A stretch of 64,000 nt of DNA from an uncultured Candidatus Saccharibacteria bacterium (lineage in GTDB: Bacteria; Patescibacteriota; Saccharimonadia; Saccharimonadales; UBA10212), in assembly GCA_964567555.1 (NCBI GenBank), contig CAZMNA010000003.1, positions 18,882 through 82,881 on the forward strand. Reading direction: 5' to 3'. Below the pieces are notes generated by a model. It was not told the origin of the DNA, searched no databases, and worked only from the letters and a program-made list of their open reading frames with translations. The translations under genes and the position numbers were made by a program. Position 1 is the first letter of the stretch; each line of letters starts with the position of its first letter. Shown here piece by piece: positions 1 through 52,335 of this stretch.

Positions 1-1997
1 GGTGGTGCCCATTTGATAAAACCGTCTTGGCTGACGAGCAGGTTGAAAACGGTCGTTGCTGGCGCTGCGGCAACGAGGTTGAACGCAAGCTGCTGAAGCA
101 GTGGTTCTTCAAAATCCGTGAATATGCCGACCGGCTGGACGCGGACTTGGATAAAGTCGACTGGTCGAATTCTATAAAGACGATGCAGCACAACTGGATC
201 GGCAAGAGCCAGGGCATGATTTTCACCGCGCCGGTCAAATATACCAAAATGAAAATCCAGACTTTCTCGGCTCACTTCGAAGCTTTCATGGCCGACACAT
301 TCGTGGTCATCGCGCCCGACCATCCGCTACTGCCAGAACTCGTGAAGGGAACTAAGGATGAGCAAAAAGTTTTAGAATTTGCCGAAGCCATTCTCAAAAA
401 GCGCGTCAAGCAAGGCTTCGCTGACGAAGAAGACGTTCACGGTATCTTCACCGGTCGCTATATCGAAGATCCGGTTGGCAATGGCGATTTGCCCATTTGG
501 GTGGCCAGCTTTGCCTTGGCTCACTACGGTACAGGCATCGTTAAATGCTCAGCCCATGATGAGCGTGATTTCCGCTTCGCCAAAAAGTACGGACTAAAGC
601 TTAAACCTACTTTGCTGCCGCCTGACCCGAAAGCGGCTGAAAAAGTTAAGAGCTTTGAAGTCATGTACGACGACCACGACAATGGCATTTTAACAGAGCC
701 TAAAAAGTTTGCCGGCAAGGTGGCGCATGATGTCCGTTCAGAGATCGTTGATTATCTGGTCAAGCATAAGCTGGCCAAGCCGAAGGTTTCGTACAAAATG
801 CGTGATTGGCTGATTTCCCGTCAGCGTTATTGGGGCGCGCCGATCCCAATCATCCACTGCCAAAAATGTGGCACCGTGCCGGTGCCAGAAAAAGACTTGC
901 CAGTCGTTCTGCCTGAGGTTAAAAGCTATGAGCCAAGCGGCGACGGCCGCAGCCCGCTGGCCAATGTACCAGCATTTGTGAACGTTAAGTGCCCAAAGTG
1001 TGGTGGCGATGCTCAGAGGGAGACCGACACCATGGACGGCTTTGCCTGCTCAAGCTGGTATTTCCTGCGCTTTGCCGATCCTCACAATGATAAGGCTGCT
1101 TTTGATAAGGAAAAGGTTAAATTTTGGCTACCGGTTGACGATTATATTGGCGGCGCCGAACACGCTGTTATGCATCTTCTCTACGCGCGCTTCTGGACCA
1201 AGGTTATGTTTGATGAAAAACTTATAGATTTTGACGAACCGTTCTCATCCTTGCGCAACCACGGCATGATTTTGGCGCCCGATGGCCAAAAAATGAGCAA
1301 GAGCAAAGGCAACACCATTGAACCCGACGGCTTGATAGAACAAGGCTACGGGGCAGATTCTATTAGGCTGATGGAACTATTCATCGGGCCGTGGAACCAG
1401 GCCGCCAGCTGGAGTGTAGAAGGTCTGGCCGGCATGCACCGCTTTTTGTCCCGAGTCTGGTCGCTTGCACTGGAGTTTAATGAGGCCAGGGCTAGCGGCG
1501 GCCAGCCCATGCAGGCCGAACGTTTAGCTGCCGTTACGCACCGTGCTACCAAGAAAGTTACGCGCGATATAGAGGACTTCAATTTCAATACTGCCCTTGC
1601 CGCCCAGATGAGCCTGGTCAACGAGCTCTATAAGATTAAGGCCGAGCAGGGCTTTGCTGATAGAGGCGCTTGGCAGACCACCCTATCAACGCTTCTACAG
1701 CTTTTAGCGCCGTTTGCGCCACACATCGCCGAAGAACTGTGGGCTGAGTTGGGGCACGATAGCTCCATTCACATCGGCCCATGGCCGACTTGGGATGAAA
1801 AGTTAATTGCCGAAGAAGTCATGACCTTGGCCATTCAAATCAACGGTAAGGTTCGCGGCGAAGTTATGGTGCCGGTTGATGTAAGCGAATCTGGTGCTAT
1901 CGCCGCCGCCAAAGAAGCGGCGGCCGATAAACTGTCTGGTCAAAAAATCAAAAAAGAAATTTACGTACCAAGTCGCCTGGTTAACTTTGTTGTTTAA
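1..1997 (+). CDS. leuS: leucyl-tRNA synthetase, C-terminal ~660 aa (5' end lies upstream of window)
   Basis: In-frame translation runs from the window start. CWRCG zinc-knuckle, KMSKS-like region and anticodon-binding domain are present; the ORF track begins at an internal TTG. Confidence 0.9.
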   Translation, partial: WCPFDKTVLADEQVENGRCWRCGNEVERKLLKQWFFKIREYADRLDADLDKVDWSNSIKTMQHNWIGKSQGMIFTAPVKYTKMKIQTFSAHFEAFMADTFVVIAPDHPLLPELVKGTKDEQKVLEFAEAILKKRVKQGFADEEDVHGIFTGRYIEDPVGNGDLPIWVASFALAHYGTGIVKCSAHDERDFRFAKKYGLKLKPTLLPPDPKAAEKVKSFEVMYDDHDNGILTEPKKFAGKVAHDVRSEIVDYLVKHKLAKPKVSYKMRDWLISRQRYWGAPIPIIHCQKCGTVPVPEKDLPVVLPEVKSYEPSGDGRSPLANVPAFVNVKCPKCGGDAQRETDTMDGFACSSWYFLRFADPHNDKAAFDKEKVKFWLPVDDYIGGAEHAVMHLLYARFWTKVMFDEKLIDFDEPFSSLRNHGMILAPDGQKMSKSKGNTIEPDGLIEQGYGADSIRLMELFIGPWNQAASWSVEGLAGMHRFLSRVWSLALEFNEARASGGQPMQAERLAAVTHRATKKVTRDIEDFNFNTALAAQMSLVNELYKIKAEQGFADRGAWQTTLSTLLQLLAPFAPHIAEELWAELGHDSSIHIGPWPTWDEKLIAEEVMTLAIQINGKVRGEVMVPVDVSESGAIAAAKEAAADKLSGQKIKKEIYVPSRLVNFVV

Positions 1998-7751: not shown

Positions 7752-8378
7752 GATATTGACAGCGCGAGCGGTAACTAAGACCACAGTCAGCAGCGAGATA
7801 AATGCTTGAGCACTCATTAAGGCTTTGGCGATGTGGGTTAGGGGCATAGTATCGGTTGGGCTGAAAGCTGTGCTATTAGTGAGTGAAACGTATAGGTAAT
7901 CGAAGAATAATGGCTGCCAATTGGGGTCATTGCTTTGCGGGAACTGAAAATCATCAGACCTTCGACGCTTACCCGAGAGGCCGGGGCTATCAAGCTCCCA
8001 ATACCACAGTCCAAAGACAATGATGTTGGTTAAAAATATCGCCAGTGCGCCGCTCAACAGTGTGCGCCCCGGTATCCCAGAATTTGTAATCAGTGCGTTA
8101 GTTAGTAGCCCCAGCTCAAACGCGTTGGCTATCGATACGATTGCGATTAAGAGTGTCGCAATAGGCGTATGCAATCCGCCCTTGCCGATATGCCGTCTCG
8201 GGGCCGTGAACGCTATAGCGAGTGTTAAAATCAACAGCAAACTTGCTACTAGGTATTTGGGGCCAAATATAAGCCTTTTGGAAATAGTAAACTGCAGGCC
8301 TGCCGCTAGCAGTAGAGTTAGTTCGGCTATCCAAAGTTCCTGTCGCTTTATAGGGTGCATAATGCCTAGTATACGCAC
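7743..8378 (-). CDS. multi-pass membrane protein (DUF1345-like)
   Basis: Six predicted TM helices with no catalytic motif. It converges on sodA. Confidence 0.5.
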
Positions 8379-8429: not shown

Positions 8430-8503
8430 TGGGGAGTGGCCAAGTGGTAAGGCACTGGGTTCTGGTCCCAGGATCGGGGGTTCGAGTCCCTCCTCCCCAG
8501 CCA
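8430..8503 (+). tRNA. tRNA-Gln (anticodon CTG), CCA encoded
   Basis: Folded by hand: 7-bp acceptor stem tggggag/ctcccca, anticodon stem ctggg/cccag with loop ttCTGgt, T-arm ggggg-TTCGAGT-ccctc, discriminator G then CCA. Confidence 0.9.
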
Positions 8504-9498: not shown

Positions 9499-9708
9499 TA
9501 TGAGTAAATTATGATAAAAAGCGATTTATTTGCAAGCATAAGCTTACATCACTGGAGAAATTAATAGTTGATTTACATATAGATACATTTATTATATAAC
9601 TAGCCCGTCTTTGTTGAGGTGTTTCAATGCGAGGACGCTCTTTAACCCAAGCTTTCCGGCTGTGCCGGACGGCTAAATCGGGGCAGTGCCCCAAGGAGGT
9701 GGCTTAAA

Positions 9709-10704
9709 ATGCCACGCAATCGTGACGATCGGATCAAGTACCGCAAGGACTTCCCGTTCGTGGACTGGTTCTACACGGTCGGACCGGGCACCCTAAAGAC
9801 CCATGATCCTGATAACTTTGCAAGTGTCGAGATCAAGGTCAAGCAGGGAACGCCGGATCTGATGTACAGACAGTCCCAGGATGCCGGTCCTTGGGAGGTT
9901 GCTATTTCCCCCGCGATCGTTCGGACCGCGGAGCCCCACTACGAGGGTCAGCAGTGCGAGTATCTCTTCGTAGTTCTTACCGACGGCGTCGTCTCTACCG
10001 AGATGAGGATTGGAGTGAAGGAAGGATACCCTGAATCCTGCCGGTATAACTACGTACGAGAGGTCTTCACCAAGTATCCCTTCGCAAGAGTTGAGTACCT
10101 TGTCTGGGTCTCGATCCAGAACTGGTACGATACGCCGGAGGATCACGTTTGGAGTCTCGCACCCGGCGTCGACGATCAGTACTTCGTCGAGAGGACAATG
10201 AAGGTCACGATCTACAAACCACCACGTGATGGTTGGTCGGGTCTGTATCGTCGTGCTCGGCTCGGCGATACGTACCTAACGACTCGGCCACTTCTTCGTG
10301 GGATCGTCAGTAACGACCCAGACTGGTTGGCGATCAGCGATCGCTTGGATCAGCTCGCGGAAGCGTTCGAGTCGCGTGTCTACCTAAAGGGAATGCGTGA
10401 CAAGATCGACTCCTCAGAGATGAAGGGTATGGCCAGTCAGTGGGGCAACGTCAAAGTCATGACTTACGCCGCCCTCGGGCGGGTCATGATCACCCTCGAT
10501 GAACCGCGTTACCAGATCACCTTCATGGCCGCTGAAGACGGCGAGCCACGGATGGGCATTAACGCAGTCGATGGGCCACTTCCTCAACTCGAGCGGATCG
10601 TCAAGACGGTCATCAAAGGTTGGGAAGCATCCGAAGATCCCGCCTCTTCGCACAACGATGAGCGGGGGTTCAGCCCGTGGCCATTCATCCCTGAGACCAC
10701 CTAA
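9709..10704 (+). CDS. hypothetical protein (331 aa), ~56% GC
   Basis: AAGGAGG RBS 6 nt before the ATG. Trp/Tyr/Asp-rich globular composition; no recognisable family. Confidence 0.55.
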   Translation: MPRNRDDRIKYRKDFPFVDWFYTVGPGTLKTHDPDNFASVEIKVKQGTPDLMYRQSQDAGPWEVAISPAIVRTAEPHYEGQQCEYLFVVLTDGVVSTEMRIGVKEGYPESCRYNYVREVFTKYPFARVEYLVWVSIQNWYDTPEDHVWSLAPGVDDQYFVERTMKVTIYKPPRDGWSGLYRRARLGDTYLTTRPLLRGIVSNDPDWLAISDRLDQLAEAFESRVYLKGMRDKIDSSEMKGMASQWGNVKVMTYAALGRVMITLDEPRYQITFMAAEDGEPRMGINAVDGPLPQLERIVKTVIKGWEASEDPASSHNDERGFSPWPFIPETT

Positions 10705-10768: not shown

Positions 10769-11254
10769 TTAGCTAATCAATTCTTCTAGCTTCGCAAACC
10801 TAACAACTTGCCAAGCCATAGCTTGTGATTCAGTTCTCCGCATGAATTCGCGACTGCTATTTTGGGACAAAATATTCAAACTACCTTCATATAGTATCTT
10901 TCGGTCTATGATAGCTACTTTACGGTGATGTCCTTCAGTGAATATGACCTGTATACCAAGGTGCTGAAGTTGTGATAGTGCTTTTAGGGCATCTAAGCGC
11001 ATAACATCATTATGTTCTTGAGGATCCCTGGTATTTATAGCTACTCTTACTCTCTTTGACTTAGCTCGCTTTAAGGCCGGTAGCAGGCACTTTAGACGTT
11101 TGGAAGTAACAAATGGGCTTTCGATGATTATTTCTGCTCCGGCCTTGTTAATGTCCCGCAAAAGCCTCGGGTAGAATGTATCTTCGTCAAATAACTTTGA
11201 TTCGGATATATCAGATATGCCATTATGAAACCGTTGGAGAAGGCGAGTTATCAT
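10769..11254 (-). CDS. PLD/HKD-family nuclease-like protein (161 aa), paralog 1
   Basis: HRKVAIID = HxKx4D motif followed by GSLNILSQ, Nuc/PLDc_2-like size. Roughly 45% identical to the 17890-18372 product (aligned by eye). Confidence 0.7.
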   Translation of the reverse strand: MITRLLQRFHNGISDISESKLFDEDTFYPRLLRDINKAGAEIIIESPFVTSKRLKCLLPALKRAKSKRVRVAINTRDPQEHNDVMRLDALKALSQLQHLGIQVIFTEGHHRKVAIIDRKILYEGSLNILSQNSSREFMRRTESQAMAWQVVRFAKLEELIS

Positions 11255-11902: not shown

Positions 11903-12114
11903 TCGGAAGTAGTGGCCGCGGCAGCCAAAATTGACTCCAGCGCCAACAATACTTCGTTTTGTATTGTAGAGCCCAGCGTATAGCGCTCAGATTTTGGGAA
12001 GTGCTTGAGTTGTTCGTGGAGAAGTTTATATAACTGGTAAAAAGAATGAACAATAGGAATATCGACAGCAGTCCCACCCAGCTTGGTCTTGAACTCGCTG
12101 GTACCGTCCATCAA
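11872..12114 (-). CDS. avd: DGR accessory variability determinant (Avd)-like four-helix-bundle protein, truncated at 80 aa
   Basis: FYQLYKLLHEQLKHFPKSERYTLGSTIQNEVLLALESIL matches helices 1-2 of the 4HB (23S rRNA-IVS protein/Avd) family. The ORF stops where helix 3 should begin and its continuation appears in the overlapping frame. Confidence 0.55.
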   Translation of the reverse strand: MMDGTSEFKTKLGGTAVDIPIVHSFYQLYKLLHEQLKHFPKSERYTLGSTIQNEVLLALESILAAAATTSECPGRTSIRL

Positions 12115-13089
12115 GCTTTGATTTTAGCATCATTTGATCATATTTCCTCTGTTGATAACCTTTTTTCAGCTTGGCAGAGATTTCGTCGTGGCAAGCAATC
12201 ACGCCCAGACGTTTTGGCCTTTGAGAGGAACCTCGAGGACAACATATTCGGCCTTCAAACAGCCTTGAAAAACCGAAGCTATAGGCATGGAGACTATGAG
12301 CCGTTTACCATCTGCGATCCCAAGCAGCGCCAAATTCATAAAGCCACTGTGCGGGACCGAGTTGTCCACCAATTGCTTGTCTCGGCGATCGAACCGTTAT
12401 TTGATAGACACTTCATATATGACAGCTACTCCTGCCGCAAACATAAGGGTACCCACGCGGCAGTCGACCGGTTGAGGACTTTTCTGCGCAAAGCTAGCAA
12501 CAATAACACCAGGCAGGCTTACGCACTTAAACTGGACGTTCATAAATTCTTCGCCTCGGTCGATCATGACATTCTGACAAAGCTCTTAAAGAAACGGCTC
12601 CAAGACCCGCAAATACTGTGGCTACTCGATAAAGTTATAGAAAGTCACGAAGTTACACCAGGCAAAGGTATGCCGCTGGGCAACCTAACTAGCCAGCTAT
12701 TCGCTAACGTCTATATGCACGAGCTGGATTGGTTCGTCAAAAATCAACTGAAAGCTAAATACTACTTACGCTACTGCGATGATTTTATTATTGTCGATAC
12801 TGACCGCGACAAATTGCTTGGTCTTGTGCATCCATTGAGCGAGTTCCTTAACGAGTGTTTGGGTCTACATATTCACCCCCAAAAGATAAGTTTGCGAAGC
12901 TGGAGCCAAGGAGTGGATTTCCTGGGTTATGTATCCAAGCCACACTGTACTCTATTGCGTACTAAAACCCGAAAACGGATGCTGGCTAAAGTGGATTCTC
13001 ATAACCTGCCATCTTATCTAGGTCTATGTTCGCACGCCGACACATATAGGCTGAAGCGGTTAATTCTCAATAAAACAGCCTCTACTTGA
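12046..13089 (+). CDS. diversity-generating retroelement (DGR)-type reverse transcriptase
   Basis: RT motifs 0-7 are present: SAWQRFRRGK, ICDPKQR..DRVVHQ, the DGR-specific PLGNLTSQLFANVYM (I/LGxxxSQ in place of QGxxxSP), YLRYCDDFII and GVDFLGY. At 347 aa it has no maturase/En domains. It overlaps avd head-to-head if it starts at 12046; TTG 12118 is an alternative start. Confidence 0.8.
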   Translation: MNNRNIDSSPTQLGLELAGTVHQALILASFDHISSVDNLFSAWQRFRRGKQSRPDVLAFERNLEDNIFGLQTALKNRSYRHGDYEPFTICDPKQRQIHKATVRDRVVHQLLVSAIEPLFDRHFIYDSYSCRKHKGTHAAVDRLRTFLRKASNNNTRQAYALKLDVHKFFASVDHDILTKLLKKRLQDPQILWLLDKVIESHEVTPGKGMPLGNLTSQLFANVYMHELDWFVKNQLKAKYYLRYCDDFIIVDTDRDKLLGLVHPLSEFLNECLGLHIHPQKISLRSWSQGVDFLGYVSKPHCTLLRTKTRKRMLAKVDSHNLPSYLGLCSHADTYRLKRLILNKTAST

Positions 13090-13216: not shown

Positions 13217-14017
13217 CTACAACTCCCTGACCACCGGAACGGCATAGTCGTCGCTGCGGTCGTCGTCCCAGCTGGCACCCAGGCCGACCTCGCGGTCGAT
13301 CCCGTTCCAGTCGAGGATCGGCACGTCCGCCCAAGCCTCGCTGCCGGGAACGTTGGCCTGAAGGCCAGCTGCCCAGGCGCCCGGAATGGTCTCGTAGTCG
13401 ATGGCCGGCGGATACGCGGGGTGAGCCGCGAAGGCCGACAGGACTTGGAGTCCGGCCGAGTCATCGCCACGAACGTCCTTGGGGGCAGAGCCCCGGTTGG
13501 CCGTCATGTCCAGCTCGACCCACTTGACGCTCGGCTCCTTGCCGTAGCGGTCGGGGTTGAGCAGGCGCAGGTGCTCGGCGTCGGACTTGAGCCCGTCGTA
13601 GCGCCAGTAACCGTTGTCGATGATCTTCTGTTCGTGCTTGATCCAACCGGCCAGAGCCTCGAAGGTGGTCGGCAGGTCGCCGAGCCAGACGTCGAGGGTG
13701 AGCAGGTGGTCGAGCGAGCTGACGTGGTCGGTCGGCATCGTCTGCTTGAGCTGATCGAGCAGATCGGTGACCGGCCAGTCCTGGAACCCCGCGTAGTACG
13801 AGAAGCGACCGAGGATCTCCTCCGGTGTGCTGAAGACCTGCGGGACCGGCGGGACCATCAGGGCGTTGAACGCCTGGCGGTCAATCCGACCGGGATCGCC
13901 CTTCATCAGGGCAGTCAGTAGGTCGAAGTTGTCGACGAGCTTCTGCACGTTGTCACGGCTCTCCTTGCGGAGGTTGTCCGTGATTTCGCTGGCCTGAGCC
14001 ATCGTTGAAGCCGACAT
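13217..14017 (-). CDS. hypothetical protein (266 aa) on a ~65% GC foreign segment
   Basis: AAGGAG RBS 6 nt before the ATG on the minus strand. Diverse W/Y/D-rich composition. The overlapping plus-strand ORF is R/V/G-rich and looks like an antisense artefact. Confidence 0.5.
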   Translation of the reverse strand: MSASTMAQASEITDNLRKESRDNVQKLVDNFDLLTALMKGDPGRIDRQAFNALMVPPVPQVFSTPEEILGRFSYYAGFQDWPVTDLLDQLKQTMPTDHVSSLDHLLTLDVWLGDLPTTFEALAGWIKHEQKIIDNGYWRYDGLKSDAEHLRLLNPDRYGKEPSVKWVELDMTANRGSAPKDVRGDDSAGLQVLSAFAAHPAYPPAIDYETIPGAWAAGLQANVPGSEAWADVPILDWNGIDREVGLGASWDDDRSDDYAVPVVREL

Positions 14018-17889: not shown

Positions 17890-18372
17890 TTACCAATAAA
17901 ACCGTTTCAACTTTAAAAAACTAATCATTTGCCGAGAAAGTTGCTCCGATTCTATACGTCGCATAACTTCACGGCTATGGCTCTGAGACAATATATTAAG
18001 ACTGCCTTCCCATAAAACCCTTTCATCCAGTATTGCGATTTTCCTGTGGTGATAATCATGGAAGAATTTAACTTTAACTCCTATATTCTTTAGCTCTTTT
18101 CTTGCTTGCCATGCCTGGATGCGCAGTAACCTGTCGTGATGGTTGGGGAAGCGAGTGTTTACCCTCACTACCACCCCTTTCTTAACCAACTTGCGGAGGG
18201 CAGGGGAAAGAGTGCGCAATCTACTTGTCGTGATGTATGGACTTTCAATGATAACCTCCTTCTGGCAAGTCTTTAGGTCTTGCAAAAATGCTCTGTAAAA
18301 TGTTCGTTCATCGAACAGATTCGAGGTAAGTAGGTCAGCAGGTGCGACCTTATGGCGCTTAAGACTTATCAT
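17890..18372 (-). CDS. PLD/HKD-family nuclease-like protein (160 aa), paralog 2
   Basis: HRKIAILD HxKx4D motif and GSLNILSQSHSREVMRRIES, nearly identical in arrangement to the 10769-11254 product. Confidence 0.7.
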   Translation of the reverse strand: MISLKRHKVAPADLLTSNLFDERTFYRAFLQDLKTCQKEVIIESPYITTSRLRTLSPALRKLVKKGVVVRVNTRFPNHHDRLLRIQAWQARKELKNIGVKVKFFHDYHHRKIAILDERVLWEGSLNILSQSHSREVMRRIESEQLSRQMISFLKLKRFYW

Positions 18373-18529
18373 CGTCTACCTCCATCCCCAGAGCCACCAG
18401 TTTCTGGTACATTAAGAGCAGGCTAGGGTATAAGGTGTTCCACCTATGGGCGACCATCCCAGCCAAGCCAAAGGTTGACCGTAGCTATCGGTACCCGTAA
18501 AGTCGTCGAAGCTAGGCCCTAGGAGCCTT

Positions 18530-43323: not shown

Positions 43324-44532
43324 ATGGAACGTCCTTTGGCGGAGCGGATGCGGCCGACCAAACTATCAGATGTGGTGGGGCAGGAGCAAATTGTTGGCAA
43401 AGGCAAGCTGATTAGCGAGCTAGTAAGCGCCGGCAAGCCTTTTAGTTTAATTTTTTGGGGGCCGCCGGGTAGCGGCAAAACTACGCTGGCACGCATTATC
43501 GCCAATGAGATGAATGCTGATTTTATAGAAATTAGCGCCGTCAACGCCGGCAAGGCCGATGTTACCAAGGTTGTCGAGCGGGCAAGGGGCAACGAGCAGG
43601 GCAGCACCATCGACAAGCCAAAGCAAACCGTTCTGTTTGTCGATGAGATCCATCGTTTCAATAAAGCCCAGCAGGATGCCTTTTTGCCTCACGTAGAGTC
43701 CGGTCTTATCACCCTCATTGGCGCCACAACCGAGAATCCCAGTTTTGAAGTCATCACGCCGCTTTTATCCCGCAGCCGGGTGGTGGTGCTGGAGCCGCTC
43801 GCCAAAAAAGATTTGATCGCAGTTTTAAAGCGCGCGGCCAATCCGCCAGCTGGCGGAGAAAAAATTACAGCCAAGCGCCTGCCGGCCGCCAGCTTGGACT
43901 TGCTGGCAGAACTTTCCGGCGGCGATGCCCGTATTGCGCTCGGCAATTTGGAGCTAGCCAACCAGCTGGCTGGCAAGGGCGCTATCACTAAAGATGTCGT
44001 CCAGCAGGCCGCCCAAAAGCGTATTCCGGGTTACGACAAAACTGGGGAAATGCACTACAACATCATTAGCGCTTTTATAAAATCTATGCGTGGCGGCGAC
44101 GGCTCAGCTGCGCTTTATTACATGGCCCGCATGCTACAGGCTGGGGAAGATCCAAAGTTTATTGCCCGGCGGATGGTAGTTTTTGCTTCTGAGGATATTG
44201 GCATGGCCGCGCCGGCCGCGCTAAATATTGCCGTCTCCACTTTTTTGGCGGTAGAACGAATTGGTTTGCCGGAATGTCAGATTAATTTGTCGCACTGCGT
44301 AACTGTACTAGCCCGTGCGCCAAAATCGCGAGAGTCTTACAATGCTTGGGGAAAAGCCCAAGCTGCCGCGCGAGACTATCCTGATGCGCCGGTGCCGCTG
44401 CACCTGCGAAACGCCCCAACCAAGCTGATGAAAGATCTAGGCTACGGCAAAGGTACCAAGTGGGAAAGTGGTTTTAAGCATCCCAAGGGGTTTCTCCCGG
44501 AAGAACTTGCTGACACAGATTTCTTTAATTGA
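43324..44532 (+). CDS. rarA: replication-associated recombination protein A (AAA+ ATPase)
   Basis: GPPGSGKTTLARIIA Walker A, VLFVDEIHRFNKAQQD and the MgsA C-terminal domain. Confidence 0.85.
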   Translation: MERPLAERMRPTKLSDVVGQEQIVGKGKLISELVSAGKPFSLIFWGPPGSGKTTLARIIANEMNADFIEISAVNAGKADVTKVVERARGNEQGSTIDKPKQTVLFVDEIHRFNKAQQDAFLPHVESGLITLIGATTENPSFEVITPLLSRSRVVVLEPLAKKDLIAVLKRAANPPAGGEKITAKRLPAASLDLLAELSGGDARIALGNLELANQLAGKGAITKDVVQQAAQKRIPGYDKTGEMHYNIISAFIKSMRGGDGSAALYYMARMLQAGEDPKFIARRMVVFASEDIGMAAPAALNIAVSTFLAVERIGLPECQINLSHCVTVLARAPKSRESYNAWGKAQAAARDYPDAPVPLHLRNAPTKLMKDLGYGKGTKWESGFKHPKGFLPEELADTDFFN

Positions 44533-44566
44533 TTAATGGATATAGAAAGCGCTGTATATTGTAAAT

Positions 44567-44869
44567 ATGAACATTCCAGAGAGTGTCCCTAACGATACTA
44601 GGACTTCAGGCGAGCTAGCAGAGGATTGGGCTGATCTGGAATTGGTAGATTTCTATAGGGAGTGGGGTCTTCTAGAGGTTCCAGCCGATAAAGAATATAG
44701 CGGCAAGTTCGTTCTTGGCACTATTAGGGCAGCCTTTGCCCACGGGCTGCGTAAAGGCTCGGCGGAGCCTGAAGCAACTCGGGAATACCTAGAAGCTTAT
44801 TCCGCCGAAAAACGCCGATGCCCGGACCCAGTTTTATTTAATTTCGCTGACGACAGCAGCAACTACTAG
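44567..44869 (+). CDS. hypothetical protein (100 aa)
   Basis: ORF only. Confidence 0.4.
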   Translation: MNIPESVPNDTRTSGELAEDWADLELVDFYREWGLLEVPADKEYSGKFVLGTIRAAFAHGLRKGSAEPEATREYLEAYSAEKRRCPDPVLFNFADDSSNY

Positions 44870-45412
44870 CACTATTAGTGCTGATGCTCCAACTAAAAAG
44901 CTAACAAGCTGTATGATCCATGCCGCTCTACTGGAACCTTCTTGGGTGTTAGATAGCGCAGCCAATGCAGCATTTTCTTTATCAACAGGATTTTGCATCG
45001 TTCCTATCACCTTGAGTGCATCAACTGCTTTCTCTCGATTTTTATACCAGAAACGTCGTTCTGAAATAAAATGGATAACTCCAGTCAGGAGTGAAATGCC
45101 CAATCCAGCAACAGAAACGATTAAAAACAATGCGGCTATAATGCCTATACTATTGGTTCCTCTATTTACTGCAACTCCACCAATAATTGCTAGAACAGCT
45201 GAAGAAATAAGAATTATTTGTAGCGCCACCTTTTCTTCAGCTTGGTTGCCCTGTGAAGTAAAGTCTTTTATAGATTCGACCAGGGCCTGGGTATTTGTAA
45301 TGGGCCGTTGCGGCATAGCTACGGGCAGCTGTAGCTGAATACTCGGGATATTCTGCTGTTGTGCGATTGGGGGTGGTAGCGGTGATGGAGGGTCCTGTTT
45401 ATTATCATCCAT
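44834..45412 (-). CDS. membrane protein with a Pro/Gln-rich N-terminus (192 aa)
   Basis: Three TM helices. Repeat copy 1 lies ~75 bp upstream of its start. Confidence 0.45.
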   Translation of the reverse strand: MDDNKQDPPSPLPPPIAQQQNIPSIQLQLPVAMPQRPITNTQALVESIKDFTSQGNQAEEKVALQIILISSAVLAIIGGVAVNRGTNSIGIIAALFLIVSVAGLGISLLTGVIHFISERRFWYKNREKAVDALKVIGTMQNPVDKENAALAALSNTQEGSSRAAWIIQLVSFLVGASALIVLVVAAVVSEIK

Positions 45413-45483
45413 AATTCAAGCATGGCACGCACTATATACGGATGCAAGCATAAGCACGCGCAAAATAAGCGGGCCGGGATATG

Positions 45484-45516
45484 TATAAAGAACGCACGCG
45501 CGTGGGGTGAAACAGG
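45484..45516 (+). repeat. intergenic repeat copy 1 (TATAAAG-AACGCACGCGCGTGGGGTGaAACAG)
   Basis: Near-identical to copies at 46262, 47345 and 48114. Contains the 10-bp perfect palindrome CACGCGCGTG. Confidence 0.8.
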
Positions 45517-45556
45517 GGGCGTATGCTTGCTTTTTCCATAATTTGTTAGAAAATAG

Positions 45557-46246
45557 TTGTTAATGAGTTTTCATGAGCGAATAGCCTCACCAGAGTATTG
45601 GGAGAGTCCCAGCTCATTGCCCGAGGTTCCAATTGGCGCAAAAGTTTTAGATGGGTTTTTTGGCGCGCATTTATTGGCGACGCATGGAGCTGTGAAGGTA
45701 ATGGAGTTGTATAGAAAAGCTAGGGTTTCGGGCCATATAGCAGAGGCGGTTCCGTTCGGGGAAGAACTGCCGCTTCTAGAAAGGGGGGAGGGGTTATTAA
45801 GGGTCGTTGAGGATAGTATAAATCTTGGACCGCCCAGACGGCGGGACTTTCACTTGTATAAGAATGGTGAAGAAACATTTGAACGCCGGGCCGCTCAGAT
45901 TCAAGCCAACAGGCTATATAGTGGTGAGTCCGCTCGTATGATTGTGGACTACGAGGACGAACGCCAAGCAAGAATTTGGAGGACTGTAACTTATATGACC
46001 GGTTCTAGAAGTGGCCATATGCTCGAAGGAGTAATGAGCGACCTGTTGGATCGACGGCCTGCCGATATTCTGATGCTTGATCAACTGCCACCGATCGTAG
46101 TGGGTGAGCCGTACAAATGGAATCTTGGTGGGGATATGTCTAAAGTGATTGCCGCAGACATATTAATTCCAGGTGGAGGAAAGAAGAAAAAACTGCCAAA
46201 GCTAGCAAAAGTTAGCCCGTCCCCTAGACTAGTAGCAAGTTTTTAA
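45557..46246 (+). CDS. hypothetical protein (229 aa)
   Basis: ORF only, flanked by repeat copies 1 and 2. Confidence 0.45.
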   Translation: MLMSFHERIASPEYWESPSSLPEVPIGAKVLDGFFGAHLLATHGAVKVMELYRKARVSGHIAEAVPFGEELPLLERGEGLLRVVEDSINLGPPRRRDFHLYKNGEETFERRAAQIQANRLYSGESARMIVDYEDERQARIWRTVTYMTGSRSGHMLEGVMSDLLDRRPADILMLDQLPPIVVGEPYKWNLGGDMSKVIAADILIPGGGKKKKLPKLAKVSPSPRLVASF

Positions 46247-46261
46247 AAGCGGGCGGTGTTA

Positions 46262-46297
46262 TAGTGAAAGAACGCACGCGCGTGGGGTGGAACAGAT
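46262..46297 (+). repeat. intergenic repeat copy 2
   Basis: ATAGTGAAAGAACGCACGCGCGTGGGGTGGAACAGAT; sits between two convergent genes. Confidence 0.8.
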
Positions 46298-46310
46298 AGA
46301 AATTGGGCCG

Positions 46311-46694
46311 CTAGAGCAGGCCGGCTTTGATAAGTTGAGGAAAGATTTCTTTCGTGAAGTTCGGCGTTACTTTTGTGTTGCCAAATTCAATATCCTGCCT
46401 GGAGAACCAACCGATTTTTGTAATTTCCTTGCTGACGGTTGCAGGCTCGCCAACAACATCTACTAAAAAGTATTTAGCTGTCGGCGTGTAGTCGTGTGAT
46501 ACTTGGCTGAAAAGTTTTGCTTTATTAATTTTCACTCCGAGCTCTTCTGCCAACTCCCGGCGGAGGGCTTGTTGGTAGTCCTCGCCCGCGTTTAATCGCC
46601 CGCCAGGGGTCCAGTACAGTCCCAGCTCGTCATTTGAAACCAGCAAAATTCTTTTATCTCTAATTATCAATGCGCCAGCACGCCTAGCTTTCAT
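46311..46694 (-). CDS. NUDIX hydrolase (127 aa)
   Basis: Nudix box GGRLNAGEDYQQALRRELAEELGV. Confidence 0.7.
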   Translation of the reverse strand: MKARRAGALIIRDKRILLVSNDELGLYWTPGGRLNAGEDYQQALRRELAEELGVKINKAKLFSQVSHDYTPTAKYFLVDVVGEPATVSKEITKIGWFSRQDIEFGNTKVTPNFTKEIFPQLIKAGLL

Positions 46695-46719
46695 AAATCG
46701 GATTATACGCCCAAGATTA

Positions 46720-47274
46720 TTAGCTTAATAAGCTTAATTGAATCGCTTCCGGGGAGTAATCACTCGGGAATCCCAGTTCATGTAGTTGTTGGGGTGTGAG
46801 TTCAGCCAATGCTCTTAGATAAACCTCCACGCTTTCTTCTACATGATCGAGCTCTTCTAGCGGCTCGTCCCTTCGTTGACTTTCTTCCCAGCGTTCACAA
46901 GAACTACGGCTAGTTTGCATGCCGCTCATTCCCAGGGGGCGTTTTCCGTCTGTCCGAATGTGAGGCGCGACACTCTCGTCGTTGCTGCCGGGGTTCTGTA
47001 CCTGAATGGATAGATATACCGTGAAATCCTGGCCTTCTACTACACCCGCCAAGGGAACCTCAGGTGTTATGTGCCAATCTCTCCCATAGCTCTCTTGCGG
47101 CTTAAGCAGTGGCCTTACTTTATCAATCATCCTATTAAAGCGCACGACATAGCCTAATTCCCCTACGCCTTCAATCCGCTTTGCAGGCTCGTCTTTTACC
47201 TTACTATACTCAACCGCATGCCGGTCACCTTCGTAAAAATGAAAGCCAGCAGCAATTAAGTTCTCTTTGTCCAT
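46720..47274 (-). CDS. hypothetical protein (184 aa)
   Basis: ORF only. Repeat copy 3 lies ~88 bp upstream of its start. Confidence 0.45.
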   Translation of the reverse strand: MDKENLIAAGFHFYEGDRHAVEYSKVKDEPAKRIEGVGELGYVVRFNRMIDKVRPLLKPQESYGRDWHITPEVPLAGVVEGQDFTVYLSIQVQNPGSNDESVAPHIRTDGKRPLGMSGMQTSRSSCERWEESQRRDEPLEELDHVEESVEVYLRALAELTPQQLHELGFPSDYSPEAIQLSLLS

Positions 47275-47344
47275 TCGGGATATTATAAACTCTTATTGCA
47301 AAAAATCAATAATCCCTACGTCCGACAGCTCTGAAGAACCCCCA

Positions 47345-47389
47345 GGCGGGTTATATATATAAAAGGCGCGCGCGTGGGGTGGAACAGAT
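47345..47389 (+). repeat. intergenic repeat copy 3
   Basis: GGCGGGTTATATATATAAAAGGCGCGCGCGTGGGGTGGAACAGAT. Confidence 0.8.
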
Positions 47390-47506
47390 GGGGTCTATTG
47401 AATTTCATAGGGATAGGCCAAATCGGGGCAAGCGTGACCGAAAAGCTAGTTTTGTGTTAATGGAGAGCGAAGTGATCGTACTAAGTGTCTTCGGAAAATG
47501 CCCGCT

Positions 47507-48064
47507 TCAAAATGCATTGCGGGATCCATGAAATTTTCCTCCATCTATGGTAACTATTCTGGCCTCTCGCCTCCCGCTGTCGCCAATAATTCTGCTTGCT
47601 CTAACCAAGTATTGGCGAGCTGGATCATCCATCCTGCCCCCACCAGCAATTAATTCGAATTCCTCGCTTAAGCGGTCCTTGATACCTGATGCAACCCCTG
47701 CAACACCATGCATGGCTCGATCAGACAGAACAACATGCTTACCTATAGCAATATCAAAGAGGTGTCGCAATGCGGTGCCACCGACTCTTGCCACAGTGGA
47801 AAGGTTGCGCCTCGTATTTTCTTCTGTCGGCGCTCTATAAGATTCCAAATCTCGTAATGCCGCCAGAATCGCCAGATCAGAAAGAGCATTTTCGTCGTCT
47901 TGCGTCCTCATCCAGCGAAGTATGTTGTCAGAATCTGGGGCAATGCCACTAATCCAAAGTCGTCGTATACGCGGCATTTCAACTTGTCTCACAGCATCTG
48001 CAAAATTCCACAAGGACGCGCTTAAAGCTGGCAACTCATGTTGGTCTAATGGCATAACTGCCAA
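47507..48064 (-). CDS. hypothetical protein (185 aa)
   Basis: ORF only. Repeat copy 4 lies ~64 bp upstream of its start. Confidence 0.45.
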   Translation of the reverse strand: MAVMPLDQHELPALSASLWNFADAVRQVEMPRIRRLWISGIAPDSDNILRWMRTQDDENALSDLAILAALRDLESYRAPTEENTRRNLSTVARVGGTALRHLFDIAIGKHVVLSDRAMHGVAGVASGIKDRLSEEFELIAGGGRMDDPARQYLVRASRIIGDSGRREARIVTIDGGKFHGSRNAF

Positions 48065-48113
48065 AAGATAACAATTTAGAGGTTATAGTGCAAGCATGAG
48101 CAGGGTAAAGAGC

Positions 48114-48150
48114 ATATATAAGGAACGTGTGCGCGTGGGGTGGAACAGAT
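48114..48150 (+). repeat. intergenic repeat copy 4
   Basis: ATATATAAGGAACGTGTGCGCGTGGGGTGGAACAGAT. Confidence 0.8.
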
Positions 48151-48173
48151 AACCCATGCTACTAGTGGAAAAT

Positions 48174-49403
48174 TTAATTTTCTACAAAGGTCAGGGCATG
48201 GCCTGGGCGGCCGGCGCGGCCGGCGCGGCCAATGCGGTGCACGTAATCGTCGTAGGTCTGCGGCTGGTCAAAATTAATAACGTGAGTTATGTCCTTGACG
48301 TCTATGCCGCGGGCAGCAACATCCGTTGCCACCAGGATGTTTAGGTTGTTAAGCCTAAAAGCATCCAGCGCCCGCTTGCGGGCACCTTGGCTTTTGCCGC
48401 CGTGTAGGGCCGCGGTTTTAAAGCCGCGGGCGTTTAGCTCTTTGCTTAGCCGTTCTACCCCATATTTAGTTTTGCCGAAGATAAGCGCCTTTTTGGTATC
48501 TCCGGCGATGAGCGCATTATGGAGCCTGTCCATTTTCTCCGTCTTGCCGGAAAACTTCACCACGGCTTGGTGGACGTTACTGCTAGTCTCGCCAGCTTTG
48601 ACGTTCACAAACTCCGGGTTGTGGCAGAAGGAATCTATGAGGTTTTTGATAGCTGGGCTTACCGTGGCACTAAAGAAGAAGGCCTGGTGTTCTTTTGGCA
48701 AAAGCTGCAGTATGTGACGCACATCTGGCAAAAAGCCCATGTCCAGCATCCTGTCCACCTCATCCAAAACCACCGTGTGGCAGTTGCTCAAGTTAAGGGT
48801 CTGCTGCTGCAGGTGATCCTTGATACGCCCAGGAGTACCAATAAGCAGCCGCGCACCGTTTTTAAGAGCCGTTTTTTGGCGACCCATAGGCATACCACCA
48901 ATGAGTAGGGCAGAACTAATACCGCTACTTCGTCCAAGCAAGTGGCACTGCTCTTCTATTTGTATGGCCAGCTCGCGCGTGGGTGCCACAATTAAAGCTT
49001 GGCTGCCGCTTGTATGCATCAGTTTATTTAAGACAGGCAGGGCGAACGCGGCGGTCTTGCCGGTACCCGTATCTGCAACTCCCACAACGTTTCGGCCGGC
49101 TAGGCCTAGGGCTATAGTTTTATCCTGGATTTCTGATGGGCTCATATAGCCTTTGGCCGTCACGTTGCTTTTAAGCAGGGGGTGCATGACAAAATCGGCA
49201 AAATCATGACCAGATTTATAATCTGCTGATTCGCCAGGGTTGGCTATTTTTACAAAGCGCGCCGGATCAATTGTCTGGCCGCCGCGGGAACGCGGCTTAG
49301 ACGAGAAGTGGCGCCTAGGCCCAGAACTATACGGTCTTTGGCTACCATAACTTTTATAACCTGGACGCCGCGGCGCGTGGTTGAATGAACTATTTTGATA
49401 CAT
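48174..49403 (-). CDS. DEAD-box ATP-dependent RNA helicase with an Arg/Gly/Ser-rich C-terminal tail
   Basis: Q-motif, AxTGTGKT, DEVD (DEAD variant), SAT and HRIGRAGRAG motifs. Confidence 0.9.
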   Translation of the reverse strand: MYQNSSFNHAPRRPGYKSYGSQRPYSSGPRRHFSSKPRSRGGQTIDPARFVKIANPGESADYKSGHDFADFVMHPLLKSNVTAKGYMSPSEIQDKTIALGLAGRNVVGVADTGTGKTAAFALPVLNKLMHTSGSQALIVAPTRELAIQIEEQCHLLGRSSGISSALLIGGMPMGRQKTALKNGARLLIGTPGRIKDHLQQQTLNLSNCHTVVLDEVDRMLDMGFLPDVRHILQLLPKEHQAFFFSATVSPAIKNLIDSFCHNPEFVNVKAGETSSNVHQAVVKFSGKTEKMDRLHNALIAGDTKKALIFGKTKYGVERLSKELNARGFKTAALHGGKSQGARKRALDAFRLNNLNILVATDVAARGIDVKDITHVINFDQPQTYDDYVHRIGRAGRAGRPGHALTFVEN

Positions 49404-49566
49404 TAAAAAAGAATCCTGTCTAACTTAGTTTTACTCTGATTGCTGCAAAAAGCCTGGAGTAAAACTGGGTAAACCCGGATTCTTGAACAATTAACACAAT
49501 ATTAACATAAAAATTATAGTTTTACCAGCATCTTGGAGCATGGGACAAAGAACACGCTCAAAAAGT

Positions 49567-50007
49567 TTATGGTTTGGCGATGTGAAAGTTGCTGACGTTG
49601 TCGCCAGTTACGCGGCCTGACGAATCGCTAGTAAAGGTATATAGCGGCATGCCTTTGTAGACATACTGCATAGAACCGTCCGAACGGGTAATAACGGTTA
49701 CGTTTGTGGGCAAAGAGGTTGTTTTAGTAGCTTGGTAAATGGGCCAGGTGTAAAGACAAGAGTCGCTGCAGTTGCTAACGCCGCTACTATCTGCGCCGTA
49801 AGTGTAAAGCGCGTTGCCATTGGCATCCGCCAAGTATGAGCCTACGCCCGAAGCTGTCTTGGTTTGGATTATCGCCCCAGAACTAATGGGAGACTGGTTG
49901 CCTGAAGTGCTGCTAGAAGGGGTTTTTGTGGGCGATTTATGAAATATGGCGTAAGCGCCAACGGCTATAAGTATGATTACTATAATTGCAGCTGCTGATC
50001 TCTTCAT
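49567..50007 (-). CDS. secreted/lipoprotein of the Lipoprotein_15 (COG4315) repeat family
   Basis: Signal peptide MKRSAAAIIVIIL.. after an AAGGAG RBS. Two LYTF..D..G.S.C...C...WP repeats. The ORF track's start at 50166 is too early. Confidence 0.65.
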   Translation of the reverse strand: MKRSAAAIIVIILIAVGAYAIFHKSPTKTPSSSTSGNQSPISSGAIIQTKTASGVGSYLADANGNALYTYGADSSGVSNCSDSCLYTWPIYQATKTTSLPTNVTVITRSDGSMQYVYKGMPLYTFTSDSSGRVTGDNVSNFHIAKP

Positions 50008-50284
50008 GATGAGCTCCTTAATTGGTGCATTAATTATAGCAGTGTCTGTTGGCCTAGCTGCGGCGGCGGAGATTGCTACCAAGCCAACAACGTACAAGGA
50101 CAAAATCGCCAGGGGTCTGGGCCCATCCGTAGCCACTGGCGCCACGGCTACAAACCATAGAATCATCCCCGCAAGCTCTACCTGCTTTTAAATATGGCAA
50201 AGATCGCCCGCTTAAGGACAAAAGCCCTATCAATAAATGGCCTAGAATGGCCTGTTATAATGGTTGAGTAATTTGACAACTAAA

Positions 50285-50420
50285 AATATCAAGAGAGCAG
50301 CGAGGGATCTAGCCCAACGACCTGCCAGCAACCTAGCGTTCTTGCCAAGGTGCTAAGCCTAGCCCAAACGGGAAGGATAAAATCGATGAATCCTTTCCTT
50401 GCCAGAAAGGATTTTTATTT
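50285..50420 (+). promoter_or_regulatory. SAM-I (S-box) riboswitch with an intrinsic terminator that sequesters the metK SD
   Basis: ATCAAGAGAGCAGCGAGGGATCTAGCCCAACGACCTGCCAGCAACC..GGTGCTAAGCC matches the SAM-I core (AUCAAGAGAGG.GGAGGGA.UGGCCC..GCAACC..GGUGCUAA). Hairpin tcctttc/gaaagga plus T8 lies at 50391-50420, immediately before the metK ATG. Confidence 0.75.
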
Positions 50421-51546: not shown

Positions 51547-51674
51547 GTTTTGCACAAGTTTGCCCACAACTTACCCACAACTTCTAAACAGAAAAACGAT
51601 GCTTGTGTAAAAAATCCATAGTCCGCCAAAAAATAGGCGTTGACGCGTCTCACGGTTCCGATTATAGTAGTTAG

Positions 51675-51788
51675 TGTCATCGTGAGGTGACGCGGTAAGA
51701 TCAGCAATGAAACTACCGTCTAGGTAACCCCTCCCTCGTGGAAGAGTTACCACAAAAATAGGGCCCTCAAAAGCCCTATTTTTGGTTT
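51675..51788 (+). ncRNA. candidate small RNA 1 (~110 nt) with its own promoter and terminator
   Basis: TTGACG-17-TATAGT promoter at 51640-51668. Transcript contains a GUGAGGUGAC hairpin and a C-rich CCCCUCCCUC loop. Intrinsic terminator atagggc/gccctat plus T5 at 51758-51785. No plausible ORF. Confidence 0.5.
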
Positions 51789-52237
51789 CCGGGACAGACC
51801 AAGCCAGCTTTCTCGACGGCCCAGCCACCGATACCGCTGGCTTTCTTAGTCTATTGCTTCGTCAGGAGCTTGCGTTGCTTGCTTGCAGTATCTTTGCATA
51901 CAGCTTCTCTCCGCTACTCGCTCCTTTCTCGCACTAGATCTAAATCTGCCTCCGGCAACTATTGGCAAAGTGCCTAAAACTTGGGCGGGGATTGTAGAAA
52001 TAACAAAAATCTTTACAAGATTTAGCCATTTAGGTTATGCTTTTTTCAGGCTAAGCAAAAAGCCAAAAGTACACCTCACAAAAAAGGGCGGGCAGTCACC
52101 CGAGTTGGATTGATTGCTCGCCCATCTCTTTGACCGCAGAGTCGCCTGTGGATAATTAAGTTTATTGCAAAAAATACTACGCTCTAAGGTGTTATGAGCG
52201 CGTTGACACACAATGAACGGCGGACTATAGTTAATAG

Positions 52238-52335
52238 CGTCATCTACTTTGTGAGGTGACAGATAGACTCCCTAAAAAGAGACTATCGCCAAAGACAGGG
52301 CCCTCAAAAGCCCTGTTTTTGTTTTCTCAAGCTTT
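52238..52335 (+). ncRNA. candidate small RNA 2 (~95 nt), paralog of sRNA 1; could instead be a cis-leader of the FMN-binding gene
   Basis: TTGACA-17-TATAGT promoter at 52203-52231. It shares GTCATC..GTGAGGTGAC, CTCCCT and the terminator AGGGCCCTCAAAAGCCCT-T5 with sRNA 1. It ends 33 nt before the ATG at 52368. Confidence 0.5.

Follow-up and report, generated by a model that had tools for sequence, protein, structure and literature searches.

The window analysed here, a stretch of 64,000 nucleotides (64 kb) from the genome of an uncultured bacterium of the Saccharimonadales (TM7), contains a run of small genes downstream of rarA that is punctuated by a short repeated motif. The rarA gene (MgsA; 43324–44532, plus strand), which is conserved in all relatives examined, is the left anchor of this variable array, and a backbone-like gene for a DEAD-box helicase (48174–49403, minus strand) lies to the right of the last repeat. 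The first repeat is separated from rarA by a 100-aa open reading frame (ORF) on the plus strand and then the gene for a 192-aa membrane protein with weak 8xMP/SLATT-like matches (44834–45412, minus strand). The genes between the repeats fall into three putative exchange units. The first (45516–46266) contains the gene for a 229-aa protein (45557–46246, plus strand; 227 aa with the ATG start at 45563), the second (46298–47360) the genes for a NUDIX hydrolase of 127 aa (46311–46694) and a 184-aa protein (46720–47274), both on the minus strand, and the third (47390–48119) the gene for a 185-aa protein (47507–48064, minus strand; 182 aa with the ATG start at 48055). The 229-aa and the 184-aa proteins belong to no Pfam family and the 185-aa protein is an orphan.

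A repeat search of the 64 kb grouped the four copies into one family of direct, co-oriented repeats at 45467–45515, 46247–46295, 47339–47387 and 48100–48148, with start-to-start spacings of 780, 1092 and 761 nt and a span of 2.7 kb. With up to three mismatches allowed, the 18-mer GCGCGTGGGGTGGAACAG matched the window four times, always on the plus strand, compared to 0.06 matches expected by chance, and four matches were reached in none of 100 shuffles. The core common to the four copies, GCGCGTGGGGTG(G/A)AACAG, has no other match in the 64 kb. A looser 14-mer search added nothing beyond chance, and an nhmmer profile built from ten copies of the window and its relatives did not detect a fifth copy in the window. 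The initial annotation had described four copies in the same orientation, each in a different intergenic gap among unrelated small genes, and a perfect palindrome in copies 1 and 2; the repeat and 18-mer searches, the ORF list and BLASTP reproduced all of this, with coordinates that differed by a few bases.

Alignment of the window copies with those of relatives delimits a conserved unit of about 30 nt with sharp edges, AARGAAC-GCRCGCGCGTGGGGTGRAACAGAT, which is preceded by a weaker flank, AAGCGGGCGG..TTATAG. On the plus strand of the window, this unit occupies 45487–45515 in copy 1 (AAAGAACGCACGCGCGTGGGGTGAAACAG), located in the divergent gap between the genes for the 192-aa membrane protein and the 229-aa protein, and 46267–46297 in copy 2, located in the convergent gap between the 229-aa and NUDIX genes, with the NUDIX stop codon 13 nt further on. 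Copy 3 (47361–47389) separates the minus-strand genes for the 184-aa and 185-aa proteins, and copy 4 (48120–48150) lies between the 185-aa gene and the helicase gene, also both on the minus strand, with the helicase stop codon 23 nt further on. The palindrome, CACGCGCGTG, is present in copies 1 and 2; GCGCGCGC takes its place in copy 3, and copy 4 lacks both. Across the ten-copy alignment, the unit carries a direct half-repeat, GGAAC..N15–19..GGAAC. The piece TGCAAGCATAAGC downstream of copies 1 and 4 was not counted as part of the repeat, because it is a common, reversed promoter piece of the TTGCA -35 type that is also found at 9532 and 41765 of the window. Plus-strand mini-ORFs that begin in the motif (GTG GAA CAG AT..) were likewise set aside as by-products of the motif that run antisense to real genes.

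The element is a double-stranded sequence motif and not a folded structure. Single-stranded DNA folds of the four copies on both strands were no better than those of shuffled sequences (z -1.7 to +1.3), no terminator-like site coincided with any window copy, and Rfam 15 gave no match at E≤1 in 44400–48400, the only matches in the entire window being a tRNA and a SAM riboswitch.

We compared the rarA neighbourhood of the window with those of seven other genomes, designated L095, L098, L101, L102, L104, L107 and L125, whose rarA proteins are 82–86% identical to that of the window. In all seven, a variable stretch follows rarA and ends at backbone genes such as FMN_bind/ApbE. This stretch is short in L102 and L104 (3–4 genes) and long in L095, L098, L101, L107 and L125, where it comprises 6–15 small, mostly hypothetical genes on both strands. 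Defence-like genes in the relatives' arrays encode a reverse transcriptase, an AAA_15/21 ATPase, a HATPase and a DUF5677 protein. An all-against-all comparison of these arrays yielded almost no gene in common; the exceptions were three genes of backbone type and a 39-residue match that involves ORFs translated from a non-coding stretch. The comparison of the syntenic region that had been proposed in the initial annotation thus revealed entirely different gene content combined with the same or sister repeats at the same locus, and not an invariant gene order lacking the motif.

Copies of the motif itself were found in two of the relatives. L101 (rarA protein 85% identical) carries four, at 8347, 11302, 12076 and 12718, and L095 (86% identical) carries two, at 14010 and approximately 14565, all on the rarA strand; no cargo protein is common to the window and these two arrays. 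Among the ten copies from three species, five lie in tandem minus/minus gaps, three in divergent and two in convergent gaps (window copy 2 and L101 copy c), and none is reversed, so that the orientation of the motif is always that of rarA, whatever the orientation of the genes that it separates. The motif was absent from the conserved flanks and from L098, L102, L104, L107 and L125, and throughout the loci examined (the 64-kb window and about 170 kb from relatives) it occurs in the variable array alone and is not scattered over unrelated sites. Neither the motif nor its sister motif described below occurred in IMG/VR viral contigs or in collections of plasmids and phages. Between species, the motif has also changed less than the housekeeping gene beside it: the copies L101a and L095a agree at 25 of 26 positions within unrelated flanks, whereas the rarA genes of these two genomes are only 79.5% identical in nucleotides. 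Either strong constraint on the motif or a recent exchange accounts for this difference. The variable array of L101 additionally contains a gene for an IS1595-family transposase (9525–10409), beside which a gene call of 280 aa on the plus strand appears to be spurious, a minus-strand ORF of 147 aa (10771–11214) being more credible.

Scans of the GTDB species representatives and of JGI metagenome contigs with the exact pattern GCGCGTGGGGTGRAACAG gave about 43 matches each, which were single chance matches in unrelated taxa. The matches that were inspected lay in coding sequence, such as the one within an ORF of L082, and a triple match in a Dehalococcoidia genome turned out to be a paralogous coding segment. 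The pattern is too narrow for the GCGCATGGGGTAGAACAG variant of the relatives, and the metagenome scan missed copy 4, a known copy, on contig L121; for these reasons, the scans are uninformative on the genome-wide copy number.

Further relatives carry sister junction repeats, ACGCTCAAAA...GGGCGGGCGGTTAG, downstream of rarA. In L098, seven co-oriented copies of ACGCTCAAAAGGGGCGGCCGGTTAG occupy seven consecutive gene gaps, and none is found elsewhere in 21 kb. In L107, the two ends of the sister repeat are parted by a 30-nt hairpin insert in six copies and by an insert of about 85 nt in two copies; together with short forms, these fill nearly every gap from the gene for a 494-aa HATPase onward. 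A 5-bp stem can close around the variable centre of the longer form in L107, with zero compensatory changes. Short or partial forms occur in L125, L102, L104, L101 and in a further contig, L128. All sister repeats are co-oriented with rarA and absent from the conserved flanks, and they occupy convergent gaps as well as one tandem plus/plus gap (Glyoxalase|132 in L098). Their TTAG often provides the TAA stop codon of the minus-strand gene to the right. The flanks of the window copies align with the sister repeat (copy 1, GCACGCGCAAAATAAGCGGGCCGG; copy 2, AAGCGGGCGGTGTTATAG), which identifies the partly conserved GCGGG..TTATA flank as its remnant, and the window element therefore consists of a sister repeat, often decayed, with an extension of about 30 nt on its right. 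For copy 1, this left flank (ACGCGCAAAATAAGCGGGCCGGGATATG, 45455–45483, plus strand) is homologous to the ACGCTCAAAA..GGGCGG..TTAG of relatives, with an nhmmer match at 45455–45476 (E=0.012), and for copy 2 the sister-repeat remnant (AAGCGGGCGGTGTTATAGTG, 46247–46266, plus strand) begins directly after the stop codon of the 229-aa gene.

Several smaller features are associated with the sister repeats. A half-copy at 49554–49570 of the window (ACGCTCAAAAAG, followed by the TTA stop of a lipoprotein gene) lies between the helicase and lipoprotein genes and suggests that these two backbone-like genes may once have been array units. The hairpin insert of L107, TTTAGCCCGTAAACTCTTAGTTTTATGGGG, is identical in the six junction repeats between 16385 and 20915 and has GGGG on either side, as if this were a 4-bp target duplication. 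The longer insert (..GTAAATCCTGAAGCGAAGCAGTCGGYAATCGGAYTGYGTAGCATYAAGATT..) is conserved at a length of 75–85 nt within junction repeats at 18345–18430 and 19757–19842 of L107 and at approximately 345–460 (minus strand) of L128; it has a predicted fold with z about -1.8 and no Rfam match. A related piece of about 65 nt adjoins the reverse transcriptase gene in L098 (11215–11280) and is also found in L107 (13830–13900).

The turnover of genes at this locus is best seen in the sister genomes L098 and L125. To the left of the array, their flanks have nucleotide identities of 97% and 87%, and to its right of 91% and 89%; the interval that varies between them extends from about 35 nt before the rarA stop codon to a junction repeat that abuts the stop codon of a HAD gene. 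Within this interval, 5.7 kb with eight genes in L098 and 3.0 kb with about six genes in L125 have nothing in common save one junction repeat of 46 nt, demonstrating that genes between the copies are wholly replaced between close relatives. At the right edge, homology resumes in the right half of the junction repeat (..AAAAGGGGCGGCCGGTTAGGATATC in L098, ..GACTTGGCCGGCTGGTTAGGATATC in L125). Pseudo-copies of the last 40–60 nt of rarA (..PEEL..D.DFF) were found inside the arrays of L098 (11282–11320) and L107 (12402–12437 and 13905–13950), all on the rarA strand. They bear the signature of repeated integration events at this gene end and mark the locus as an integration site in relatives; the window contains no second copy of the rarA 3' end. 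An apparent difference in genes between L104 and L105 was a mere difference in gene calling. Contigs of the window organism were retrieved from about 12 soil metagenome assemblies via rarA or the 185-aa protein, and these are approximately 100% identical and collinear at this locus. One further contig, L123 (ENA ERZ27245393 k141_715909, 773 nt), spans exactly the 185-aa unit, with its ends inside copies 3 and 4. As it is collinear with 47352–48124 of the window, it is no evidence for a circular form of the unit and is probably the product of an assembly break.

The cargo genes look accessory, being orphan or rare and low in GC3, which is 0.32–0.50 in array genes compared to 0.54–0.63 in the backbone. 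The small proteins of the array are mutually unrelated (best BLASTP E=0.007, the match being to a backbone lipoprotein), and PADLOC and NCBIfam searches with the cargo returned only the NUDIX match and weak SLATT matches. Among 5.8 billion proteins, the 185-aa protein has no homologue besides itself and the 229-aa protein just two distant ones, both in other TM7 genomes and both adjoining ksgA and the tmRNA gene, where the motif is absent. In these two distant Saccharibacteria, the homologues (L110, 1809–2393; L112, 8812–9301) directly follow the tmRNA gene, downstream of ksgA; the tmRNA was read by eye as GGGGCTGAATTT...GCAGCTCCACCA. tmRNA genes are a classic integration site of islands. A search of 1.8 billion representatives gave four relatives of the 184-aa protein. 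The closest one (62% identity) is encoded on the 1-kb contig L128 between two sister-type junction repeats; its relative orientation is unchanged, and it has another neighbour. The AF2 model of the 184-aa protein is confident (pLDDT 82) but has no fold match in the PDB, whereas the model of the 229-aa protein was too poor for use.

A perfect 18-nt inverted repeat (TGGCCGCGCCGGCCGCGC at 44204–44221, GCGCGGCCGGCGCGGCCA at 48214–48231) brackets the whole array, with one arm in rarA and the other, about 4 kb away, in the 3' end of the helicase gene. Both arms are GC-rich coding sequence (Ala/Gly/Arg-rich) and the match may be a coincidence, although it could permit inversion of the array. Elsewhere in the window, a gene for a reverse transcriptase of 347 aa (RVT_1, E=1.7e-25; 12046–13089, plus strand) lies among hypothetical ORFs, about 3.5 kb downstream of the tRNA at 8430–8500, and its surroundings may represent a second accessory region (retron, DGR or defence reverse transcriptase). 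The SAM riboswitch (S-box, 52 bits; 50283–50383) is located upstream of metK. Two paralogous small non-coding units at approximately 51640–51790 and 52200–52330, between metK and the FMN_bind gene, each contain a promoter-like site (TTGAC..N17..TATAGT), a common GTGAGGTGAC box and the same terminator (AGGGCCCTCAAAAGCCCT with a T tract); they share a 37-nt self-match with 89% identity, and no Rfam family was reported there.

We tentatively favour the interpretation that the repeats are recombination junctions, which would delimit exchangeable units of one or two genes in a hypervariable accessory array downstream of rarA in soil and peat Saccharimonadales. We infer that exchange takes place at the repeats themselves because the motif has a single orientation independent of the gene strand and is confined to one hypervariable locus with different cargo in several species, and because a homology breakpoint falls inside a junction repeat. 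These three features are expected to arise from recombination at a repeated site and not from promoters, operators, untranslated-region (UTR) elements or terminators, which are tied to genes. Units would be inserted, deleted or exchanged at the repeats. An incoming unit, circular or linear, could recombine with a resident copy, and each gain would leave an extra co-oriented copy, while recombination between two resident copies would delete the units between them. Each unit would carry its own promoter, typically for a leaderless mRNA. Such a process might be carried out by a dedicated site-specific recombinase whose gene lies elsewhere in the genome of about 0.73 Mb, by a Xer-type recombinase, or by RecA-dependent exchange over short homologies after DNA uptake. 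Of the three readings offered by the initial annotation (a shared promoter or operator, a 5'-UTR RNA element and recombination sites that delimit cassettes), the last is the one best supported by the locus, the repeats, the turnover and the breakpoint in relatives; no recombinase, circle or strain-level insertion or deletion was found.

Several observations weigh against recombination at the repeats. No IntI-type (PF00589) integrase or other recombinase was found in precomputed Pfam annotations within 10 kb on either side of the array or in a Pfam scan of 30 ORFs of the window, and the motif lacks the dyad symmetry usual for core sites of tyrosine or serine recombinases. In the collinear contigs from the approximately 12 assemblies, we saw neither circular junctions nor empty sites, and no strain had gained or lost a unit. 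The same cassette was never seen at two array positions, the one hint of cassette movement being the relative with 62% identity to the 184-aa gene, which lies in a different array and beside other genes. The difference between the whole arrays of L098 and L125 could result from one homologous replacement anchored in rarA and HAD. In addition, the motif is present in just 4 of about 14 gaps in L101 and 2 of about 12 gaps in L095, and the copy counts cover the window and the roughly 170 kb of related loci. Finally, the left half of the sister repeat reads on the minus strand as the -10 region of leaderless genes (TTTTGAGCG-TATAAT, 6–8 nt, ATG) and similar pieces also occur in the backbone, indicating that this half is partly ordinary promoter sequence.

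Among the alternatives, the most probable one, although we consider it unlikely, is that the motif is an operator or silencer site of a DNA-binding protein that co-regulates the island genes, its uniform orientation being a by-product of the way in which units arrived. Such a site would agree with a double-stranded type of motif that does not fold, with the strong conservation across species and with the position of 8 of the 10 copies at 36–169 nt upstream of a minus-strand gene. Most copies also have a TA-rich hexamer after the core on the minus strand, and the direct GGAAC half-repeat fits such a site as well. However, two of the ten copies are located in convergent gaps, where no promoter is available for control, and none is found reversed before a plus-strand gene, although about 30% of the array genes are on the plus strand. 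The motif stands at varying distances from the start codon, the array contains no evident regulator gene, and the confinement of the motif to a hypervariable locus with different cargo in three species is left unexplained. Moreover, the 184-aa gene has a separate canonical promoter downstream of copy 3, a sigma-70-type promoter-like site in leaderless layout (TTGATT-16-TATAAT-7-ATG; 47282–47309, minus strand) between the repeat and the gene. The suggestion of the initial annotation that the repeats form a shared promoter or operator is poorly supported on the points of orientation, distance and separate promoter, there being nothing to promote in convergent 3'-3' gaps.

A somewhat less probable alternative is that the unit of about 30 nt is a selfish, non-autonomous insertion (MITE/REP-like) that targets the gene junction in a single orientation and plays no part in gene exchange. 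This explanation gains credibility from further small insertions that the junction has acquired in L107 and L128, namely the 30-nt hairpin found six times and the structured piece of 75–85 nt found two or three times. The sharp edges of the unit, its constant position directly to the right of a GCGGGCGG..TTA(T)AG remnant and the near-identity of the window copies, as expected of recent spread, are likewise consistent with an insertion. On the other hand, the unit has neither a hairpin nor a terminal inverted repeat and is not dispersed, since copies outside the array were absent from the 64 kb and the roughly 170 kb of related loci; on these points, and in its single orientation, the unit differs from REP and MITE elements. 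The 96% conservation across species, compared to 80% for rarA, argues for selection and not for decay, and no matching transposase was found, the IS1595 enzyme of L101 being the sole one seen.

A polar chromosomal signal that follows the direction of replication or repair, for instance a fork barrier like Ter or a hotspot like Chi, is in our view a very unlikely explanation of the motif. The uniform orientation irrespective of gene strand and the location next to rarA, a replication-associated gene, could point to such a function, as could the presence of GCGCGTG in the core and AGCGG in the flank, which are the Chi sequences of Lactococcus and Bacillus, respectively. However, GCGCGTG occurs six times forward and three times in reverse in the window, four of the six forward occurrences being the repeats themselves, and AGCGG occurs 92 versus 116 times without excess or skew; outside the repeats, candidate Chi words showed neither excess nor strand skew in the window and the seven relatives, for which reason a Chi-like site was rejected. 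GC skew neither switches at the locus nor gave a signal for the location of the terminus, no cluster in the opposite orientation was found, and there would be no reason for Ter or Chi sites to lie in successive gaps of one 3-kb array. Least probable, and hardly credible, is a function as RNA, be it a 5'-UTR element as proposed in the initial annotation, a terminator or a Rho-utilisation site of minus-strand transcripts, since the C-rich and G-poor minus strand of the motif (CUGUUCCACCCCAC) and its position 6–26 nt after a stop codon in 5 of the 10 copies are outweighed by the lack of a stable or conserved fold above shuffles, of terminator-like sites at the copies and of Rfam matches, by the genuine hairpin and T-tract terminator that in L095 and L101 already lies between the stop codon and the motif, and by the single orientation of the copies, three of which have no minus-strand gene upstream.

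Saccharibacteria are epibionts with tiny genomes (about 0.75 Mb), whose gain and loss of accessory genes is poorly understood. If the repeats are indeed recombination junctions, a fixed locus at which single genes, a good part of them orphan or defence-like, are swapped at a conserved junction would represent a compact mechanism of gene capture in the Candidate Phyla Radiation (CPR). The junction motif could then be used as a probe for the cassette pool in metagenomes, and the recombinase could be sought by comparing genomes with and without the motif. Some Saccharibacteria are now genetically tractable, and in these the sites might serve as a natural landing pad. Even if the motif were a mere regulator site or a selfish insert, a well-defined hypervariable hotspot beside rarA would remain, which should be useful for TM7 pangenomes.

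The architecture of the array resembles integrons and clusters of attC sites lacking integrases (CALINs), SCC-like accretion and pdif modules, and the defining features of each of these systems were looked for at this locus and not found. As in sedentary chromosomal integrons and CALINs, small and mostly orphan genes form an array with rapid gene turnover at a fixed chromosomal locus. The units of about 0.45–1.1 kb (window, L101 and L098) are delimited by co-oriented copies of a repeat that is uniform inside each genome, diverges between species and frequently touches or overlaps the stop codon next to it. Unlike in integrons, the neighbourhood of the array lacks an IntI-type integrase, the repeats of about 25–50 nt have neither the attC hairpin (R''/L''-L'/R') nor a GTTRRRY core, no GTTRRRY/RYYYAAC pair being present in the four window copies, the genes lie on both strands with their own promoters, and the host is a CPR bacterium. 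The initial annotation was thus right in stating that this is not a canonical integron, and we found no literature report of integrons or cassette arrays in Saccharibacteria or CPR. Whether the Saccharimonadales might possess a native, integron-like capture platform after rarA, with short, non-hairpin, double-stranded sites that are homogenised within lineages, a non-IntI recombinase encoded elsewhere and units with their own promoters, is a more far-reaching idea that we consider doubtful.

SCC islands are inserted at the 3' end of rlmH, and the array likewise begins where a conserved gene ends. Co-oriented direct repeats part successive insertions in both, and pseudo-copies of the gene end are found inside the array in relatives. 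In contrast to SCC islands, the repeats of the window are not copies of the rarA 3' end, as attachment-site accretion at rarA would require; the units are single genes instead of multi-kb elements, and no Ccr-like serine recombinase or other integrase was seen. The pdif modules of Acinetobacter plasmids and Xer-dependent integrative mobile elements (IMEX) are similar in being small modules on either strand with short recombination sites (about 28 bp) and a recombinase encoded elsewhere. Unlike in pdif sites, the ten-copy alignment contains no 11-6-11 XerC/XerD dyad and offers only a short central palindrome in some copies and the GGAAC half-repeat, so that a dif-like site was rejected; one L101 copy matches the E. 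coli XerC arm GTGCGCATAA without a XerD-like arm. Moreover, pdif sites alternate in orientation on plasmids, whereas all sites are direct in this chromosomal array. With REP/BIME and MITE elements, the motif shares its short length, intergenic position and repetition at high identity, but it is neither dispersed nor palindromic and occurs in one orientation at one variable locus in the three carrier species. The fixed site between rarA and FMN_bind/ApbE with different cargo in close relatives also resembles hotspots of flank recombination, such as the minimal mobile elements of Neisseria or defence hotspots, and the cargo includes defence-like genes for a reverse transcriptase, an AAA_15/21 ATPase, a HATPase, a NUDIX hydrolase and a SLATT-like protein. 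Such hotspots need no internal repeats, whereas a conserved repeat marks the internal boundaries of the units downstream of rarA, and one homology breakpoint lies inside such a repeat.

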